A stretch of DNA of 32,000 nt from Candidatus Omnitrophota bacterium (GCA_023818895.1 JAMWCX010000004.1:1-32000); one strand, 5' to 3'. Numbered from the stretch's first letter, positions 1 through 12,812 are shown. Translations and numbers: made by a program. Notes: generated by a model from the letters alone, not told the origin.

Positions 1-399
1 TGGCTCCCCCGCGAGGACTCGAACCTCGGACACTCTGGTTAACAGCCAGATGCTCTCGATTCTGTTACCACCCGTATAATCGGGCGAGCCGGTCATTTCT
101 GCCGGCTTCTCCTGTTTCACTGCGGTTATATCAGGAGTCCGGACTATCGCATGACCCTTTCGGGCCTCCCGTCGTTTAGTCTCTCACGCCGCGTATAAGG
201 ACGCTTGCGCCTTGTTACCCACCGCTGGGCTTCCAAGTCAATTAGACGGAATTTAAAGTCGGCGGTGATGCTTCCTCCTCCTCCCTCCAACTCGCTGACA
301 ATGGCAGGGCTTCGGGGGATTAATTCGGCCTTATGACTTGCGCTCCAAAAGATCGCGTAATTCATGGCCTCATTGAACTACCGACTGAGCTACAGGGGA
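1..399 (-). tRNA. tRNA-Asn(GUU), split gene: exon 1 = 399..380, exon 2 = 56..1, interrupted in the D-loop
   Basis: Minus strand reads TCCCCTG-TA-GCTC-AGTCGGT (399..380) and AGAGC-A-TCTGG-CTGTTAA-CCAGA-GTGTC-CGAGG-TTCGAGT-CCTCG-CGGGGGA-G-CCA (56..1). The joined exons give a 76-nt cloverleaf: 7-bp acceptor stem with one U-G pair, D stem GCTC/GAGC, anticodon GTT, canonical T-loop and an encoded CCA. The layout matches the E. coli tRNA-Asn pattern (5' U, discriminator G). Confidence 0.85.
57..379 (-). ncRNA. Group I intron (323 nt) inserted between tRNA positions 20 and 21 (D-loop)
   Basis: The 5' exon ends in U (380) and the insertion ends in G (57). The core matches the group I R/S consensus: GAGACTAAACGACGG (about 183..169) and GCGATAGTCCGG (about 150..139). 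Helices found by eye: P3 TTCCGTC (251..245) / GACGGGA (173..167); P7 GACTA (181..177) / TAGTC (146..142); P8 GGCCC-GAAA-GGGTC (166..153); P9 CTCCTG (137..132) / CAGGAG (114..109); two further 3' hairpins (107..87 and 86..69). I could not resolve P4-P6 confidently by eye. Confidence 0.75.
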
Positions 400-434: not shown

Positions 435-463
435 ATAATAGCACATCGAAGCCGCCTTATCAA
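435..463 (-). promoter_or_regulatory. Sigma70-like promoter for the tRNA gene
   Basis: Minus strand TTGATA (463..458), 17-nt spacer, TATTAT (440..435). It lies about 35 nt upstream of tRNA position 1. Confidence 0.4.
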
Positions 464-2371: not shown

Positions 2372-3067
2372 ATGGCAAAGAAAAAGATATCTATAGACTG
2401 GAAGTGGGTCAAAAAAGAACTTTTGCGAAAAGAAAGAATACGCCCGGGCACTGCCATCTCTAAAGCGGCTGAAGAATACCTTAAAAAAGCCAGAAGGCTG
2501 GCCAGGCCCATAGCGATATCTACCGAAAAGAGTTTAACAATCTCATGCGTCGGAAATATCAGGGTGGCGGGCCATTCTGCCTTGAATAGCAGACAGCTTT
2601 CTTCATATCTGAAGGGCGCAAATAAAGTTCATATATTTCTTGTAACCATAGGAGGCTTGATTGAAAAAGCCGCAAGCCGCAGCATGAAAATCGGCGACTA
2701 TCTCGGGGGATATCTTCTTGACAGAATAGGGTCGCTCGCCGTGGAGTCGCTTGCAAAAAATTTTGAGGATGATCTGCGGGCGTCTTGCGCCGCCAAAGAA
2801 GCAAGCGTATCCATCCGCATGAGCCCCGGTTACTGCGACTGGCCTATTGAAGAGCAGTTTAAACTCGCAAAACTTCTGAAGTTCTCGCGAGCGGGAGTGC
2901 GTCTTAACGAAAGCTGCATGATGATTCCGCGAAAATCCATATCTGCCATTGTGGGCGTGGGCCCTAAAGGACTTTTTCGGTATAGAAAGTCGCCGTGTGC
3001 GGCCTGCGCAAAAAAGACATGCGATTACCGAAGGCCGTCCCACTTGCCGCAACGGGAATTAAGATGA
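2372..3067 (+). CDS. Stand-alone methionine synthase activation-domain-like protein (Met_synt_B12-like)
   Basis: 231-aa ORF and the only plus-strand gene. The motif block SPGYCDWPIEEQFKLAKLL...GVRLNESCMMIPRKSISAIVGVG resembles the MetH reactivation domain family. The C-terminus has a CAACAKKTC cysteine cluster. Assignment is from recalled family signatures only. Confidence 0.6.
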   Translation: MAKKKISIDWKWVKKELLRKERIRPGTAISKAAEEYLKKARRLARPIAISTEKSLTISCVGNIRVAGHSALNSRQLSSYLKGANKVHIFLVTIGGLIEKAASRSMKIGDYLGGYLLDRIGSLAVESLAKNFEDDLRASCAAKEASVSIRMSPGYCDWPIEEQFKLAKLLKFSRAGVRLNESCMMIPRKSISAIVGVGPKGLFRYRKSPCAACAKKTCDYRRPSHLPQRELR

Positions 3068-3978
3068 CCGCAGGCCTCACCGTTCGTGTAAAACCTAGCA
3101 ATCTCGCAATGGTTTGAGCAATCTTCGCACACAAAAGATTCCGATCTAAGTTCACCGTCCACACAATCGAGTCCCAAAAATTTAGTCTTTTTGATTTCCG
3201 CCTTCAGAGCAAGCAGCGCTGCGCCTATGCAACCTGTTATTTTGTGTTCTTCTGGCACGATGACAGCGTGGCCCAGCTCCTTTTCAAGCGCCCTCACTAC
3301 CCCGCCGTTCGCCGCCACGCCGCCAACGAAGAGCGTCGGACTTTCAATAGGCCTGTTCCGAGCCACATTATTAATAAAGTTCCTGGCAAGGCCTTCGCAA
3401 AGACCTTTTATTATATCCTCCTTTTTGTAGCCCAGGGCCGCTTTGTGTACCATGTCACTTTCCGAAAATACCGCGCATTTAGCCGAAATAACCACATCTC
3501 TCGTAGACCTGGCCGCATAGTCTCCAAGCTCTTCGACCGGCACTTTTAACCTGTAGGCCTGTGATGAAAGAAAAGATCCTGTTCCGGCGGCGCACAGGTT
3601 ATTCAGGTTATGCCATAGCGGCACGCCGTTCTCAAGAATAATTACCTTCGAATCTTGTCCACCTATTTCTATCACTGAGCGGACATCCGGCCTAAGCTTC
3701 AGAGCAGCCAGCGTCTGCGCAGTAACTTCGTTTCTTACGACATCCGCTCCTATAAGAAGGGATGCCAGCTTTCTGCCGCTGCCTGTAATACCGACTCCGC
3801 TTATTTCAATCCGTTGGGCTTGGCATTGCGTCTTGATGGATCCCATCGCGGTCCTGATAGAATCCGCAAGCGAGCCCCTGCTCTCAAGATATCCGCTTGC
3901 GCAGACACATCCACTCGCATCAAGAACGGCCATCTTGACCGAGATGGACCCCACATCTACTCCCAAAAAATACCTCAA
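3025..3978 (-). CDS. BadF/BadG/BcrA/BcrD-type ATPase (2-hydroxyacyl-CoA dehydratase activase-like)
   Basis: 317-aa ORF. N-terminal FLGVDVGSISVKMAVLD is an ASKHA phosphate-1 motif. CAAGTGSFL matches the cluster-binding helix region of the family. The C-terminus has a Cys-rich tail (CEDCSNHCE...C...C). An ATGA overlap joins it to the upstream gene. Confidence 0.8.
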   Translation of the reverse strand: MRYFLGVDVGSISVKMAVLDASGCVCASGYLESRGSLADSIRTAMGSIKTQCQAQRIEISGVGITGSGRKLASLLIGADVVRNEVTAQTLAALKLRPDVRSVIEIGGQDSKVIILENGVPLWHNLNNLCAAGTGSFLSSQAYRLKVPVEELGDYAARSTRDVVISAKCAVFSESDMVHKAALGYKKEDIIKGLCEGLARNFINNVARNRPIESPTLFVGGVAANGGVVRALEKELGHAVIVPEEHKITGCIGAALLALKAEIKKTKFLGLDCVDGELRSESFVCEDCSNHCEIARFYTNGEACGHLNSRCGKWDGLR

Positions 3979-4724
3979 AGCATCCCCTTTCTCATACGAA
4001 GCATGTCGACGAAAGACTCTATTCTAGTCTTAAAATGGGTTTCAACAGTAGATTCGTCTATGCTGAGGCATATCACTGGCATTCCATAATCCCGGCTTAT
4101 GCTCTCTATCGCTGGTTCTATGATCGTTTCCGGATTGCAAGCGAAGGGTTTTAAGACTATCACGCCATCGTAACCTTCCTGCGCGTACCTTATTATCCTT
4201 ACAAGATTTTCATTAGCGTGTCCGCCGGTCTTTTCGGGGAAATACTCGCGCGCCGCCGCTCTCACCTCAGCAAAGCCCTTTATCCCTAGCAACTCTTTAA
4301 ATACAAGGGCAAAATTACCTGACAGCGATAACCACCTGTCAACGTAAACCCCCATACGATGAAGCATATTCACAATATCCATGTTTATGGTATTATCGTT
4401 GCAAACGTGGATTTCGCCCGCTATTCCTATCCTTATCGGTGAGGCCCTATTTATCTCCTTCTCCTGAGCATCGAGCCTATTCACCTTCAGAAAAAAGGAG
4501 GCGACTTCCTTGGCAATTCTGAAATAAGAAACGCCTCCACTTATCCTCTGAATGTCCGCACAAAGCCGAACTGGATTTCGTACCATAATATTAATCATCT
4601 TGAAATCATACCCCAGATTCTTCAATATCATCTGCTGGGCAGACGCGTAACATCTTAAGATACACCAGCCGGCGGAATTAACCATTATGATCGTATCCGC
4701 GCCACGCTCTAAAGATTCTATCAT
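3975..4724 (-). CDS. Activase-associated DUF2229-type protein, C-terminal 249 aa of a frameshifted gene
   Basis: The ORF as tracked starts at an internal Met. The same frame stays open upstream to 4823 and encodes GDPAPPITKHTIELGTRHSPSDVCYPFKVTLGT, which continues the family pattern (CYPxK). Confidence 0.7.
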   Translation of the reverse strand: MIESLERGADTIIMVNSAGWCILRCYASAQQMILKNLGYDFKMINIMVRNPVRLCADIQRISGGVSYFRIAKEVASFFLKVNRLDAQEKEINRASPIRIGIAGEIHVCNDNTINMDIVNMLHRMGVYVDRWLSLSGNFALVFKELLGIKGFAEVRAAAREYFPEKTGGHANENLVRIIRYAQEGYDGVIVLKPFACNPETIIEPAIESISRDYGMPVICLSIDESTVETHFKTRIESFVDMLRMRKGML

Positions 4725-4801
4725 CGTTCCAAGGGTAACCTTAAAAGGATAGCAGACATCGGAAGGCGAATGCCTGGTTCCGAGCTCGATGGTATGTTTC
4801 G

Positions 4802-4921
4802 TTATCGGAGGGGCGGGATCACCTCAAGACCTATACTCTCCGCCAGCTCGATAAAAAGATTTGTATATTTACCGAAACGGGGAAACGAAACTCTTGGAAT
4901 ACGACCCTTTATCCTTATCAT
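4802..4921 (-). pseudogene. N-terminal 39-codon fragment of the same DUF2229-type gene, in a different frame
   Basis: ATG at 4921 gives MIRIKGRIPRVSFPRFGKYTNLFIELAESIGLEVIPPLR*. This is the typical N-terminus of activase-associated proteins. The frame changes within the C/G run at 4810..4817. The fragment is too short for the 60-aa ORF track. Confidence 0.6.
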
Positions 4922-4967
4922 CTATATCGAATGGAATGTTATGCGCCCGGAATGATGGAGGCGACTT

Positions 4968-5921
4968 TTATATGGATTTGGGCTGTGCTGGAGCAGCTGC
5001 TTGAGAAGCAATATTTTCTTTTCTTAATAACTCTTCCCAGGCCTTGTCGGTCTCCGCCTGTATCTGGTCGAGAAGAGCTTTGTTCTCCGGCCTAAAAAGA
5101 TGCGCAAACCGGCCCTGAAGCTTAAGCCATTCCGCGATGGGTTTTTTCTCCTTAGGCCTTGTCACTTTATACTGGCCATTGGTCACTTCATATAACGGCC
5201 ACGCGCACGTATCCACCGCAAGTCTGCCCATCTCGCATGTAAGCTCAGGCTTATAAGACCAGCCAAGCCTGCAGGGCTGGAAAACATTGATGAATTTCGG
5301 TCCTTCGATCGAGAGAGCCTTTTCGACCTTATTGGTAAGGTCACGCCAGTTGCCTACGACCGCCTGTGCCGCATACGGGATACCGTGGGCCACCATGATC
5401 GCGGTCAAGTCCTTCCGGTACTGCGCTTTTCCTTTCTGTACTTTTCCGACGGGTGCGGTGGTGGTGTCAGCGCCTATCGGAGTTGCGCTCGAGCGCTGCA
5501 CACCGGTATTCATATAAGCCTCGTTGTTATAACAGACGTATAGTATGTTATGCCCTCTCTCCATGGCGCCAGAAAGCGCCTGCAAGCCGATATCGTAAGT
5601 GCCGCCATCTCCGCCAAACGCGATGAAATTCACCTTCTTATCGTACTTCTTCTGCCTCGCCCATGACCTATATAGCGCCTCAACGCCACTTATCGTGGCG
5701 GCCGCATTCTCAAATGCGCTATGTATGAAAGGCACATTCCAGGCTGTGTAGGGGAATATAGTAGATACAACTTCAAGGCAACCCGTAGCGCTTGCGACAA
5801 CGGTATCAGGACCGGCCGCCATTAGAACCTGTCTTGCCACTATCGCGGCGCCGCAACCAGCGCAGGCACGGTGGCCGCCGGTAAATAACTCTTTCCGCTT
5901 TACTACTTCCTTTATATTCAT
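4968..5921 (-). CDS. porB: Pyruvate/2-oxoacid:ferredoxin oxidoreductase beta subunit (TPP-binding)
   Basis: 317-aa ORF. It has GGHRACAGCG near the N-terminus and the TPP motif GGDGGTYDIG...NNEAYMNTG. It is last in a gamma-delta-alpha-beta gene order. Confidence 0.9.
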   Translation of the reverse strand: MNIKEVVKRKELFTGGHRACAGCGAAIVARQVLMAAGPDTVVASATGCLEVVSTIFPYTAWNVPFIHSAFENAAATISGVEALYRSWARQKKYDKKVNFIAFGGDGGTYDIGLQALSGAMERGHNILYVCYNNEAYMNTGVQRSSATPIGADTTTAPVGKVQKGKAQYRKDLTAIMVAHGIPYAAQAVVGNWRDLTNKVEKALSIEGPKFINVFQPCRLGWSYKPELTCEMGRLAVDTCAWPLYEVTNGQYKVTRPKEKKPIAEWLKLQGRFAHLFRPENKALLDQIQAETDKAWEELLRKENIASQAAAPAQPKSI

Positions 5922-5924
5922 CTT

Positions 5925-7103
5925 CTATTCTCTCACGCCTAGATACGAAACCTTAGGCTTCTCTTTTCCGCCTGCAACCTCCGATAGCTCGCTGAAGACT
6001 AAGGCAATATCTTCGGGCCTGATCTCCCTCCCACCCAGGCCGTAGATATAATTAAGCACCGGTTTATTAACACCGATGTCATAAAAGGCCGCTTTTATCT
6101 CAGCGCAAAGAGGGCCTTCATGGCCGTTCATCGAATCAGATCTATCCATTACGGCTATGGCTTTGAGCTTTTTAAGGGCTTCCAATATCTCTTCTTTCGG
6201 AAACGGCCTAAACACCCTCGGCTTGAGAAGCCCTGCCTTGAGTCCCTTCTGTCTTAATTCATCAACAACAACCTTCGTCGTGCCAGCGGTCGATCCCATC
6301 GCCACCAGTGCTATTTCGGCATCATCTAATCGATACTTCTCAAATAGTCCATACGAGCGGCCTGCTATTACGGCAAATTCTTTCGCAACATCAAGGATTA
6401 CAGCTTTAGAAGCCTTGAATCCTTCTATCTGCTGCCTTTTATGCTCGAAATAGTAATCCGTAAGATCAAGCGCGCCTGCTGTTATCGGCTCTTCCAGCTT
6501 TAGAAGATAATCCTTTGGCTTATATTCACCGACAAAATTTTTGACATCCGCGTCATCAAGTATCTCTATACGTTCCATGCCATGGCTTATTATAAACCCG
6601 TCCGTTGTCACAATAACAGGTATGGCTGCCTTCTCTGCTATTTTTACAGCTTGGATCATATTGTCATAAGCTTCCTGGGAGTTTTCGGAAAAGATCTGTA
6701 TCCAACCGGAGTCTCTGACCATCATAGTATCGGAATGATCGCAGTGAATGTTTATTGGGCTTGAAAGCGCCCTGTTGACGACCGCAAGCACAATAGGAAG
6801 TCTTAAGCCGGCGGCAATGTATAACATTTCTGCCATGAGAGCAAGCCCCTGGCTGGAGGTGCCGGTCATCGTTCTGCCCCCTGCCGCGCTCGATCCGATA
6901 CACGCCGACATTGCCGAATGTTCGCTCTCAACCGGCACAAATTCTGTAGAGACAAGGCCATCCGCCACATAACTTGCGAATATTTGAACTATCTCCGTAG
7001 CAGGTGTTATCGGATAGGCCGCAACGACGTCCGGATTTATCTGGCGCATCGCCTCGGCCATCGCTTCGTTGCCAGTTCTTGCTACAATATTACCTTTGGC
7101 CAT
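5925..7103 (-). CDS. porA: Pyruvate/2-oxoacid:ferredoxin oxidoreductase alpha subunit
   Basis: 392-aa ORF. The N-terminus GNEAMAEAMRQINPDVVAAYPITPATEIV is typical of the POR alpha subunit. It lies 3 nt from porB. Confidence 0.9.
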   Translation of the reverse strand: MAKGNIVARTGNEAMAEAMRQINPDVVAAYPITPATEIVQIFASYVADGLVSTEFVPVESEHSAMSACIGSSAAGGRTMTGTSSQGLALMAEMLYIAAGLRLPIVLAVVNRALSSPINIHCDHSDTMMVRDSGWIQIFSENSQEAYDNMIQAVKIAEKAAIPVIVTTDGFIISHGMERIEILDDADVKNFVGEYKPKDYLLKLEEPITAGALDLTDYYFEHKRQQIEGFKASKAVILDVAKEFAVIAGRSYGLFEKYRLDDAEIALVAMGSTAGTTKVVVDELRQKGLKAGLLKPRVFRPFPKEEILEALKKLKAIAVMDRSDSMNGHEGPLCAEIKAAFYDIGVNKPVLNYIYGLGGREIRPEDIALVFSELSEVAGGKEKPKVSYLGVRE

Positions 7104-7104
7104 A

Positions 7105-7431
7105 TTATTTGCAGGTCTCGATCTTGGCTTCCCTCTCGGGCACCATCTTTATCGCCTTGCCCTTAACAGGGCACTCGTGGGCACATATACCGCAGCCCTT
7201 GCAGTAATCATAGTTAAACCCAATGACTTTACCGTCTTTAACTATTACCGCAGAATCTGGGCAGTACACCCAACAAGTCAGGCAGTTTATGCACTTCTCC
7301 GGAATGTGTACAGGACGTTCACTTCTCCAGTCGCCTGTCTTGAACTGCATAGCCGTTCCGCCGCCTATTATAAGGTCGCCTTCCGGCAAGTTCTTCCATC
7401 CGGGCTTAGTTATTTTTTTCTTTTCTGCCAT
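7105..7431 (-). CDS. porD: Pyruvate:ferredoxin oxidoreductase delta subunit (2x[4Fe-4S] ferredoxin-like)
   Basis: 108-aa ORF with two cluster motifs, CINCLTCWVYCP and CKGCGICAHECP. It lies 1 nt from porA. Confidence 0.9.
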   Translation of the reverse strand: MAEKKKITKPGWKNLPEGDLIIGGGTAMQFKTGDWRSERPVHIPEKCINCLTCWVYCPDSAVIVKDGKVIGFNYDYCKGCGICAHECPVKGKAIKMVPEREAKIETCK

Positions 7432-7536
7432 ATTTACTTAACGAATTCGCAACTCGTAATTGCGGGCTTTCAGCGGCCTTGCACAACCAAGGACCGAAGG
7501 GCCCAACCTATTCTTTACTAATTACTCTTTGTTTCC

Positions 7537-8115
7537 CTAAGATCTTACTTCCGCATACGCCCGCTCTATCGCCTTTATATTGCCCTCGACGACGCCGGGC
7601 TTATTCTTGAATTTCTTTTCGAGCTTCTTCCTCGTGTCCTCGAGCATCTCTTTAAAATCAAGTATGCCGGTCGCTTTCACAAACGCTCCCAGCATTGGCG
7701 TATTTGGTATCTCTCTGCCGATCGTCTCCTTGGATATACCCGAGGCATCTACCGCAAAGACCTTTATTCCACCTGCAATACCAAGCTCTTTTTTTATTTC
7801 AGAAGGACACTTACCGCTATTTATTATGAGGATACCGTCATCAGGCATACCTTCGGTCACGTCCACAGATGCGACCAATGTCGGATCGAGGACTATAACA
7901 ATGCTTGGATTGGCAACCCCTGAATGCAAAAGTATCGGCTTGGAGGAGATGCGGTTAAAAGAGGTGACCGGAGCGCCCATTCTTTCGGGACCATATTCCG
8001 GAAAGGCTTGTATATACTTACCTGACGCCAACGCGGCATCGGCAAATAAAAGTGCGGCCGTCTTCGCTCCCTGGCCACCCCTTCCATGCCAGCGGATTTC
8101 TATGATATCTTTCAT
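7537..8115 (-). CDS. porG: Pyruvate:ferredoxin oxidoreductase gamma subunit
   Basis: 192-aa ORF. The opening IRWHGRGGQGAKTAA is the hallmark start of the gamma subunit family. Confidence 0.9.
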   Translation of the reverse strand: MKDIIEIRWHGRGGQGAKTAALLFADAALASGKYIQAFPEYGPERMGAPVTSFNRISSKPILLHSGVANPSIVIVLDPTLVASVDVTEGMPDDGILIINSGKCPSEIKKELGIAGGIKVFAVDASGISKETIGREIPNTPMLGAFVKATGILDFKEMLEDTRKKLEKKFKNKPGVVEGNIKAIERAYAEVRS

Positions 8116-8131
8116 TTATAAACTATTGAAC

Positions 8132-8932
8132 CTATAAGGTCTCTTTTGTTATCTTGAGAAAATACGCCATAAAGCTTGCTGTAACCACAAGACCCATATA
8201 TCCATTAACGGCGCTTGAGACAGTTATCATGAGAATGCGGCCGGCCTGCATCGGTAACAGCACAGACACAAGCCCCACAAGCAGCCCAACCACAAATCCA
8301 ATAGCGAGCGCTATGAGCACCAGGGCTAATATGAGCAAAATGAGAACAAACACTCTGGAAATCGGCTTTTTCATGAGCTGGAGACTACGCTTCATTGAAG
8401 AAACGACGCCTTTTTCTTCGCAAACTACAGCGTAAGGCGACAATGTAAGAGGAATGAATATTTTCAGCGCGGCCGCTACCACTATTATAAGCGCTATCAC
8501 TATCGCTATGCCGGTAACAACGGCGTTATTCAACGGAGCGGTAACAGCTACAATTATTCCCGCTATAACAGCCACTATAGCAAGAATAAGAACGATGAGA
8601 ACACCGACACCAAGCAGTCGAAGATAATACTTAGCTCCATATTGAGGCATTACGCTAAGTCTCATCTTGCCTTCTTTAAAACTATCCCTCACGAGGCCCA
8701 GCGTACCGCCCTGGATAAAGATGCTTACTAATATGAACGCTATACTAAATAATAGAGCCGGTGCCGCCATAGCTGGTGGAATGACCGCCGGAGCGCCTGC
8801 CGCCGGCGTCATAGGCGCAAAAGGAATACTCAAAAGGTTACCTATCCAATTAAAAAGAAATAAAACCAAAACAAGCCCCATGCTTTTGGTTGCCACCCCG
8901 AAGCCTTTCCTGATCGCTTCGATCACTCCCAT
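8132..8932 (-). CDS. Polytopic membrane protein, function unknown
   Basis: 266-aa ORF with about 6 long hydrophobic segments. A strong SD (AAAAGGAGGG) precedes the ATG. I recognise no family signature. Confidence 0.6.
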   Translation of the reverse strand: MGVIEAIRKGFGVATKSMGLVLVLFLFNWIGNLLSIPFAPMTPAAGAPAVIPPAMAAPALLFSIAFILVSIFIQGGTLGLVRDSFKEGKMRLSVMPQYGAKYYLRLLGVGVLIVLILAIVAVIAGIIVAVTAPLNNAVVTGIAIVIALIIVVAAALKIFIPLTLSPYAVVCEEKGVVSSMKRSLQLMKKPISRVFVLILLILALVLIALAIGFVVGLLVGLVSVLLPMQAGRILMITVSSAVNGYMGLVVTASFMAYFLKITKETL

Positions 8933-11510: not shown

Positions 11511-12812
11511 TTAATCTTCCGGCGGCACGACAAGTTCCGCAACAATATTGACTCCCGAGGCCACTTCAGGGATTATGCCTATTCTCTTATATACCGGATG
11601 GACCACCTTACGTATCTCGGGCAATCTTCTGGCAAATATGGCAGCTGCTACAATACAAACCGCACCACCTAAGATAAGAGTGTTTGATGCTCCTATAATA
11701 CCGGCAAGCGTTCCCGCGCCAAGACTTCCCAACGGCGCCATCCCCATGAAGGCCATAGTATAAAGGCTCATGACTCTGCCACGTTTGTCATCATCGACTA
11801 TGGTTTGTAAAATAGTATTTCCAGCCGCATTATGCACAACAAGTCCAAAACCGGCAACCGCCATAAGAACAAGAGAAAACGAAAGGCTGCGTGATATTGA
11901 GAAAAGCATTATGGCAGCGGCAAATACCATAACGGATAGCGGCATCATCCTCCCAAAACCAAGCACACTCTTGCGCGAAGCCATATAGATGGTAGCAAAA
12001 AGTGCTCCTGCTCCCGCCGAAGCCATAAGAAGCCCTAGCGTTTGAGGCCCACCATGCAGTATATCACGCGCGAAGACCGGCATCAGGATGGTATATGACA
12101 TGCCCATAAGGCTCAGAACCGACAGCAAAAAAAGTATTGAACGTATAGGAAGCGATCCGAAGCTGTAGCGTAATCCCTCCTTCAAACCGTCAAGCACGTC
12201 GGCGGTCGCAAGATGTTCTTTCGGAGGCTTCATTTTCATCATTAACAGCGATATGATAACTGCCACGAAGCTCAGTCCATTCAGCAAAAAGCAAATGCCT
12301 TCTCCCGTCATGGCGACGAGGACTCCCGCCACAGACGGTCCTATCAACCTTGCGGAATTGAAGATGAGGGAATTAAGGGCGATGGCATTCGAAAGATTTT
12401 CTTTTCTCTCTACCATCTCCACTATGAACGATTGCCTAACCGGTATATCGAGCGCGTTTATGAAACCGAGAAACGCGCTGAGAATTATAATATGCCAAAC
12501 TCTAACAACGCCGCTAAGCGTAAGCGTGGCGAGAAGAAATGCCTGCAACATGGAAAAAATCTGAGTCATAAGTAAAAGGCGGCGACGATTAAGCCTGTCG
12601 GCGAACACCCCTGCAACCGGACTAAAAAAAGCAGGTATCTGGCTCGAAAAACCGACCACGCCGAGAAGGAACGGCGAGTTCGTTATGCGATAGACAAGCC
12701 AGCCCATCGCAACATGCTGCATCCATGTACCGATTAAAGATATGCCCTGTCCTGCGAAGAATAACCGGAAGTTCCTGTAGCGGAGGGTGTGAAAAATTCC
12801 TGACAATCTCAT
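11511..12812 (-). CDS. MFS transporter (EntS/MFS_3-like)
   Basis: 433-aa ORF with about 12 TM segments. The N-terminus (YRNFRLFFAGQGISLIGTWMQ) and the loop motif (DRLNRRRLL) are typical of this family. Confidence 0.85.
   Translation of the reverse strand: MRLSGIFHTLRYRNFRLFFAGQGISLIGTWMQHVAMGWLVYRITNSPFLLGVVGFSSQIPAFFSPVAGVFADRLNRRRLLLMTQIFSMLQAFLLATLTLSGVVRVWHIIILSAFLGFINALDIPVRQSFIVEMVERKENLSNAIALNSLIFNSARLIGPSVAGVLVAMTGEGICFLLNGLSFVAVIISLLMMKMKPPKEHLATADVLDGLKEGLRYSFGSLPIRSILFLLSVLSLMGMSYTILMPVFARDILHGGPQTLGLLMASAGAGALFATIYMASRKSVLGFGRMMPLSVMVFAAAIMLFSISRSLSFSLVLMAVAGFGLVVHNAAGNTILQTIVDDDKRGRVMSLYTMAFMGMAPLGSLGAGTLAGIIGASNTLILGGAVCIVAAAIFARRLPEIRKVVHPVYKRIGIIPEVASGVNIVAELVVPPED

Follow-up and report, generated by a model that had tools for sequence, protein, structure and literature searches.

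In the searchable literature, group I introns of bacterial tRNA genes are all placed in the anticodon loop (PMC4033280, PMC5733544, PMC8450103), and the largest survey reports 5,292 introns in 21 settings from 80,413 genomes (bioRxiv 10.1101/2020.01.27.920355). The survey examined only the eight anticodon-loop positions, with ARAGORN calling introns in that loop, and required an RF00028 score of at least 18-20 bits, so that it would have missed the intron described here on both counts. It classes the four classical tRNA intron settings as IC3, and for tmRNA genes it cites 343 cases of a group I intron in the T-loop (bioRxiv 10.1101/2020.01.27.920355). A P2 helix is present in the Azoarcus intron (PMC13168695). 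Our literature searches, with subscription journals largely outside their coverage, found no group I intron in a D-loop, and the statement in the initial annotation of the present locus that known bacterial tRNA introns sit in the anticodon loop and that a D-loop case is undescribed fits the searchable literature, in which the tmRNA T-loop introns are a partial precedent. Archaeal non-canonical tRNA introns, which form bulge-helix-bulge structures, are spliced by EndA and occupy many positions including the D-arm, resemble the case described here in that the tRNA is broken outside the anticodon loop and is hence missed by standard tRNA finders; they differ in being short and in relying on a protein endonuclease and ligase, whereas here we are dealing with a 323-nt ribozyme in a bacterium.

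The locus lies at the start of a 32,000-nt stretch from a metagenome-assembled genome (MAG) of a Candidatus Omnitrophota bacterium (GCA_023818895.1, JAMWCX010000004.1:1-32000; hereafter the window), where two minus-strand segments, 399..380 (20 nt) and 56..1 (56 nt), give, once joined, a sequence of 76 nt (TCCCCTGTAGCTCAGTCGGT|AGAGCATCTGGCTGTTAACCAGAGTGTCCGAGGTTCGAGTCCTCGCGGGGGAGCCA) that ARAGORN calls as tRNA-Asn(gtt) with every stem of the cloverleaf paired and anticodon GUU, just as the initial annotation had proposed; a discriminator G73 and an encoded 3' CCA can be read from the joined sequence. Exon 1 (380..399, minus; ARAGORN on the joined exons) supplies the acceptor 5' strand, U8 and A9, the D-stem 5' strand GCUC and D-loop residues A14-U20, while exon 2 (1..56, minus; ARAGORN and Rfam), which runs AGAGCATCTGG...GGGGGAGCCA, supplies A21, the D-stem 3' strand GAGC, the anticodon arm with GUU, the variable loop, the T-arm, the acceptor 3' strand, G73 and CCA. 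Between them lies an insert of 323 nt (379..57, minus), which splits the 8-nt D-loop AGUCGGU|A (AGUCGGUA) between U20 and A21. That the break lies between positions 20 and 21 was borne out by reading the joined tRNA: exon 2 holds the whole, unbroken anticodon arm (UCUGG-CUGUUAA-CCAGA), and the anticodon loop is not the insertion site. Exon 1 ends in T and the insert in G, the borders that had been claimed on group I splice-site rules. The unspliced DNA yielded no tRNA call from ARAGORN, intron mode included, and the intron-tolerant tRNA search suggested for this locus thus came up empty; the Rfam tRNA model gave a partial match at 68..11 (27 bits, below the cut-off, model positions 7-64).

Upstream of tRNA position 1 by about 35 nt is a candidate sigma-70-type promoter (435..463, minus; TTGATA-17 nt-TATTAT, TG-extended), which is a consensus match only and was scored at 3385-3413 of an identical contig from a second MAG (L001, JAMWDH010000128.1; window position = 3848 minus L001 position). 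On that contig a strong intrinsic terminator hairpin follows the CCA at 3861-3891, past the window end.

Set beside the classical bacterial tRNA introns, the insert is likewise a group I intron in a tRNA gene, lies in a hairpin loop that the two exons close by pairing, and has U at -1 in a U.G wobble, G at the omega position and no ORF; it differs in lying at D-loop position 20/21 where the classical introns lie in the anticodon loop, and its isoacceptor (Asn) and phylum (Omnitrophota) differ from those of the four classical settings, to which alone this comparison applies. Nor does it look like the IC3 type reported there for the classical tRNA introns, of which the Azoarcus intron has P2, as the present intron is without P2 and its relatives interrupt phage protein genes. 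The tmRNA introns are alike in being group I introns in a tRNA-like domain and in a loop other than the anticodon loop, and unlike in host and loop (tmRNA and T-loop there, tRNA and D-loop here). What is new at this locus is the insertion site, the host tRNA, the phylum and the intron lineage; the kind of element itself is already known.

The identification of the insert (57..379, minus, without a homing-endonuclease ORF) draws on a family covariance model, on conserved columns and on covariation among relatives, and we regard it as almost certain that this is a genuine group I intron in the tRNA-Asn D-loop. Two core blocks had been named in the initial annotation, and both are present, one being the P7/P3' strand and the other the J8/7-P7' strand; the covariance model, for which 44 relatives were used and the window was left out, matches 274..132 (minus) over its full length at 110.2 bits (E 1e-23), with zero non-canonical pairs and inside the family's own score range of 83-136 bits. 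Compared with 116 relatives, the window core agrees at 39/39 columns that are at least 97% conserved and at 8/9 columns of 90-97% conservation. Running 5' to 3' on the minus strand, the core consists of the P3 5' strand UUCCGUC (245..251), all 7 pairs of which covary in the family; the P4-P5-P6 domain (186..237; P4 CUUG/CAAG, P5 GCCC/GGGU, P6 GCGC..GC/GC.GCGU), supported by RNAalifold, the covariance model and covariation; the P7 5' strand GAGACUA with a bulged A (177..183), supported by covariation and in a pseudoknot with P3; the P3 3' strand GACGGGA (167..173), supported by the covariance model and covariation; the P8 hairpin GGCCC-GAAA-GGGUC (153..166), all 4 modelled pairs of which covary; and J8/7 AUGCGA with the P7 3' strand UAGUCC (141..152), placed by alignment, with the P7 pairing counted in the covariation test. 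The 3' domain (69..137, minus) folds into P9 (CUCCUG/CAGGAG), P9.1 (GCCGG/CCGGC) and P9.2 (CGCCCG/CGGGUG), with all three hairpins in both the MFE and centroid folds, and the same P9-P9.1-P9.2 layout was found in relatives such as the metagenomic member L018. P2 is absent by homology, the guide sequence being followed directly by UU-AAA-P3. The GC content of the intron is 54%, against 36-57% in the family (most members below 50%) and a window average of 48%.

Rfam searched at gathering thresholds returned nothing across the whole window, and RF00028, which had been put forward both as the check on a group I identity and, through its failure, as grounds for rejecting one, scored the insert at 12.3 bits (E 1.8) vs a gathering score of 50, which is below membership. 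Though weak, the RF00028 alignment places P3, J3/4-P4, P5, P7-P3' and J8/7-P7' sensibly. As a means of refutation the model was badly chosen: at E <=0.01 it finds 0 of 20 tested loci with bona fide family members, and because it misses 20/20 of these its failure on the window is not evidence against group I identity. A foldable P4-P6, on which the initial annotation had also let the matter turn, is present and covaries in the family.

Within the intron, a 73-aa reading frame at 365..144, the only sense ORF, was set aside as spurious, as it overlaps the ribozyme core, lacks a Pfam match and corresponds to no called gene on record. Elsewhere in the window, a second match to the family model at 12629-12705 (plus) is weak (14.9 bits, E 0.12); it includes AUGCGAUAG and falls within a HAMP-SpoIIE phosphatase gene, and we take it as chance.

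The relatives of this intron were reached by blastn against phage genomes, where the core matched three phage genomes at 71-73% identity over about 110 nt, with one of the genomes deposited twice. Two of these matches fall in genes that are each annotated as two CDS, namely a P22-like coat gene (MW202674) and a ribonucleotide reductase (RNR) gene of Roseobacter phage CRP-118 (OR420741, L008); the third is in Desulfovibrio phage 7757, whose deposit carries no annotation and which is also on record under the name Nitratidesulfovibrio phage SRB7757. A four-way alignment revealed compensatory changes in P3, P6, P8 and P9, and a pattern of the invariant blocks (ATTGACTTGGAA...GACTAA...ATGCGATAGTC) retrieved at least 120 metagenome contigs (L010-L129); the invariance of ATGCGATAGTC in the family is by construction, as it is part of the search pattern. 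For 44 diverse members, window excluded, RNAalifold predicts P3, P4, P5, P6 and P8, with double changes in 20 of 25 pairs. For the covariation test, P7 was entered as a pseudoknot in an alignment of 117 sequences, and here 97.7% of cells were paired vs about 40% with partners slid by 1-3 columns, a level that 0 of 500 shuffles attained; compensatory changes occurred in 24 of the 31 pairs, and the outer P7 pair alternates between A:U and G:C (74 vs 35 sequences). The family thus has the covarying P3-P8 core with P3/P7 pseudoknot by which group I introns are recognized, in a compact form without P2 and with a small P4-P6 domain.

Splicing the protein-hosted members in silico gave coherent proteins. 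In the CRP-118 gene, U-1 pairs with G in a P1 of 8 bp, and excising the 172 nt (L008 1471-1642) from there to a terminal G gives an RNR of 633 aa with GTNPC|SEIILRPYQFCNL reading across the junction. A fixed splice rule (P1 of 7 bp that includes the U.G; intron ending on the G of GTAACA(A/G)AA(0-2 nt)G) was applied to 18 metagenomic protein-hosted members and reopened the reading frame in 10/18, vs at most 1/18 in either wrong phase; after splicing, the encoded proteins match major head proteins of phages and the anaerobic RNR (NrdD), and these matches extend across the junction. The restored frames and junction-spanning protein matches point to a family of introns and not merely a structured repeat. 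The identified hosts other than tRNA-Asn are all phage genes (head protein or coat, RNR, NrdD).

The two annotated CDS of the CRP-118 RNR are one gene split at the NPC|SEI active-site motif by the 172-nt intron, which is shorter than the 205-nt Azoarcus intron that has been termed compact (PMC13168695). In the three deposited phage genomes examined, the intron is not annotated as such. On several contigs (L149 at 6029-8413, L113, L029, L038 and L066), three to five family introns lie within 1-2.5 kb of each other, and some phage genes may therefore be heavily laden with introns. Some members (L092 and L096, at about 36-45 nt after P7'; L139, L140 and L143) have a P9-region hairpin with a perfect T-arm-like sequence (e.g., CTGGG-TTCGATT-CCCAG), and no tRNA exons matching these hairpins were found.

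Among the approximately 135 family copies examined, no other tRNA-hosted member was found, leaving the window as the sole case. A T-arm scan and ARAGORN on 123 segments returned only T-arm-like intron hairpins plus one neighbouring intact tRNA, and five viral-contig patterns anchored on the D-arm or T-arm returned only chance matches or family introns with a T-loop-like P9 hairpin; joining possible exons by brute force and running ARAGORN on them proved too permissive to discriminate.

Against this family background, the insert shares with the phage-associated introns its core (110 bits), P1 geometry, 3'-terminal motif, lack of P2 and small P4-P6 domain, and differs from them in being hosted by a bacterial tRNA gene where they sit in phage protein genes, in a P1 loop (L1) of 116 nt where theirs are 4-33 nt, and in their lower GC. 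The 5' strand of P1, AGUCGGU (380..386, minus), is tRNA residues 14-20, and it forms a 7-bp helix with the internal guide sequence GCCGACU (257..263, minus; intron nt 117-123), which was located from the family alignment and P1 geometry, such that U20 stands in a U.G wobble with G117 at the 5' splice site, the P1 arrangement by which group I introns mark that site. This geometry is the family mode, as 56 of 93 distinct members have exactly 7 bp and a guide that ends, like the window's, 14 nt before ATTGACTTGGAA. An alternative guide, GGCCGA at intron nt 49-54, was rejected; it gives only 5 bp and lies inside a stable L1 hairpin, whereas nt 117-123 gives 7 bp at the homologous position.

At the other end, comparison with the family identified a conserved 3'-terminal motif GUAACAGAAUCG (57..68, minus), of which the last G (window 57) is the omega-G that group I introns place at the 3' splice site. 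The motif, in the form GTAACA(A/G)AA(0-2 nt)G, occurs in 35 of 109 members at 77-122 nt after P7', and the window's 12-nt form lies 85 nt after P7' and stops exactly at the exon 2 junction. The splice position 380/57 is thereby backed independently by the homologous guide position and by the family's 3'-terminal motif. A repeated AG at the junctions leaves three formal splice registers, of which the initial annotation had held a single one valid; indeed, only 380|379...57|56 combines U-1, omega-G, the P1 register and the terminal motif. With no target-site duplication and no extra bases, the insert is exactly one intron.

The 116-nt L1 (264..379, minus), which family comparison and folding mark as specific to this copy, is predicted to form two hairpins, one closed by GGCC/GGCC and one C-rich/G-rich. 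Enforcing P1 changes the fold from -41.1 (free) to -40.2 kcal/mol, a cost below 1 kcal/mol. The L1 insert has no repeat elsewhere within the 32-kb window and no coding potential with a database match, and at this size it could hinder P1 docking. P10 is not visible, as the start of exon 2 (AGAGCA) and the AUCACC 5' of G117 are not complementary; P10 is weak or absent in many group I introns.

The choice of splice site has consequences for the tRNA itself. P1 takes D-loop bases 14-20, G18 and G19 included, and for that reason the tRNA elbow would be unable to form before splicing. The strands of the D-stem flank the splice sites, with GCUC (10-13) adjoining the exon strand of P1 and GAGC (22-25) beginning one base past the 3' splice site. 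The earlier proposal that P1 competes with folding of the D-arm therefore stands for the loop, which P1 uses, and falls short for the stem, as GCUC/GAGC stays free and may hold the exons together. Pairing of the D-stem and acceptor stem could keep the exons in register as a substitute for P10, and given this pairing the D-loop would, as a place for an intron, have the same topology as the anticodon loop.

To place the gene in its genomic setting, we compared the window with a second assembly and with related genomes. The second MAG contig (GCA_023818765.1, JAMWDH010000128.1) is identical to the window over 478 nt, from the CCA end to the stop codon of the GGDEF gene, a segment that contains the tRNA, the intron and the promoter region, and the two differ at 2 of 3847 aligned bases overall, which makes them independent assemblies of near-identical strains. 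The window genes are chromosomal (DnaX, pyruvate:ferredoxin oxidoreductase (PFOR), glycerol kinase (GlpK), AsmA-like), and the scan of its larger ORFs, roughly 20 over the 32 kb, revealed no phage gene. For the neighbouring CHASE2-GGDEF gene two protein accessions are on record, and the source names given for this protein and its orthologues are those of Candidatus Omnitrophota. The orthologues in four other Omnitrophota lineages (9 loci) have no tRNA or intron downstream and gave no intron-less allele; synteny breaks directly after the GGDEF gene in these four relatives, where unrelated genes follow. Representative genomes gave 0 matches to a specific core pattern and 5 to a looser three-block pattern, all of them chance matches in coding sequence, and plasmid blastn gave no match. 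The search for intron-less or intron-containing alleles in related genomes that the initial annotation had suggested thus found none, either among the 9 orthologous loci or in the representative-genome scans. Absence of the tRNA from the orthologous loci leads us to think that the tRNA gene may have been acquired recently and is possibly mobile. Position 1 of the window is A76 of the tRNA, and the second contig ends 60 nt further on (3848-3907), just past the terminator; ends of two assemblies at the tRNA 3' end suggest either a repeat boundary (e.g., a second tRNA-Asn) or the edge of an inserted element, and with the synteny break they leave it an open possibility that this tRNA-Asn copy is dispensable or imported.

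In the same region, the order of genes for PFOR alpha/beta-like subunits, a Met_synt_B12 activation-domain protein and the CHASE2-GGDEF cyclase (2372-7103) is kept in Omnitrophota relatives, and the window has, in addition to what the relatives have, a BadF/BcrA-type ATPase and an HgdD-like protein between the Met_synt_B12 and PFOR-like genes.

Three other accounts of the insert need to be weighed. An assembly chimera, or a chance likeness of an unrelated insertion such as a MITE or IS fragment to group I motifs, would agree with the poor RF00028 score (12.3 bits, E 1.8) and with the origin of the sequence in a metagenome-assembled genome, but the junctions are identical in two separate assemblies, the family model reaches E 1e-23, and both ends of the insert match family intron termini to the base with no target-site duplication; a chimera of 57..379, a concern voiced at the outset, is very unlikely given the second assembly's identity over 478 nt, and we consider this account as a whole effectively refuted. 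It is also possible, if unlikely, that tRNA and intron together are the cargo of a phage or integrative element beside the GGDEF gene, which would be compatible with splicing competence and would make the D-loop intron a matter of phage biology and not of the host's own set of tRNAs. All other identified hosts of the family are phage genes and synteny is lost right after the GGDEF gene in four relatives, and exon 2 is 79-85% identical to many phage tRNA-Asn genes, as any tRNA-Asn would be; on the other side stand the lack of phage genes in the scan of roughly 20 larger ORFs, an intron GC of 54% that exceeds both typical family GC and the window average, and the failure of five viral-contig scans to turn up a tRNA-hosted copy.

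A real intron that does not splice here, now or ever, would make the gene a tRNA-Asn pseudogene that a phage-derived intron has inactivated, with another tRNA-Asn serving the cell, and we hold this to be unlikely. The oversized 116-nt P1 loop, the lack of a visible P10, the status of this tRNA as the sole tRNA host seen in the family and the missing tRNA at the syntenic position in relatives all speak in its favour, as do the assembly ends at the CCA and 60 nt beyond it, which, if true contig ends, could mark a repeated tRNA sequence. Yet no decay is seen: 39/39 near-invariant core columns are intact and the score is inside the family range, every cloverleaf exon pair is intact, promoter and terminator are retained, and the locus is identical in two assemblies. 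A very recent insertion would, however, look just as intact, and guide-exon complementarity is no proof of current function because insertion by reverse splicing would give it automatically.

The explanation we favour, and regard as quite probable, is that a P2-less group I intron of the phage family lies at U20/A21 of a chromosomal Omnitrophota tRNA-Asn(GUU) gene and splices; that splicing there yields a functional tRNA seems likely. On this explanation, a precursor of at least about 430 nt would be transcribed from the gene's own promoter and its core would fold, P3-P8 with the P3/P7 pseudoknot and then P9-P9.2. A14-U20 would pair with the guide GCCGACU to form the 7-bp P1, in which the U20.G117 wobble would mark the 5' splice site for attack by an external guanosine. 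Next, the omega-G (intron nt 323, window 57) would enter the G-site of P7 and U20 would attack the 3' splice site through its free 3'-OH, joining U20 to A21 and giving the junction ...CAGUCGGU|AGAGCAU.... Exon-exon pairing, through the D-stem (GCUC/GAGC) and the acceptor stem, may align the 3' exon much as the anticodon stem does for anticodon-loop introns, and RNase P and 3' trimming would complete the tRNA.

As to where the intron came from, one family member, L018, has a target and guide (AAUCGGU/GCCGAUU) one base from the window's AGUCGGU/GCCGACU and shares with the window the first two bases of the intron and the 3' motif. A plausible route from a phage gene would be reverse splicing; illegitimate homing to a site that resembles the original target, with later adjustment of the guide sequence, would be another. 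The target UAGCUCAGUCGGU|AGAGC is among the most conserved tRNA sequences and is common to, for example, E. coli tRNA-Phe, and therefore further tRNA genes could in principle be invaded with the guide sequence unchanged. A more far-reaching reading, to which we give slightly less than even credence, is that this is the first natural self-splicing intron in a tRNA D-loop, active and supplying the cell's tRNA-Asn, with D-stem and acceptor stem standing in for P10, and that it is the tip of a class of introns in any cloverleaf hairpin loop that tRNAscan-SE, ARAGORN and Rfam do not see.

These findings bear on accounts that restrict bacterial tRNA introns to the anticodon loop, an assumption on which the main surveys rest, and an intron in the D-loop would make the anticodon-loop rule at least partly an artefact of detection. 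The locus would offer a natural test case of a group I ribozyme whose P1 is made of nucleotides of the tRNA tertiary core (G18, G19), with a tRNA body unable to pre-fold, and it would document how an intron family of phage protein genes has jumped to an RNA gene of a cell. Through it a large phage intron family of at least 120 loci has come to light, one that goes undetected by the Rfam group I model. Annotation of MAGs may be miscounting tRNA sets, and, if introns of this kind do form a class occupying any loop of the cloverleaf, they could explain some of the 'missing' tRNAs in uncultured bacteria.
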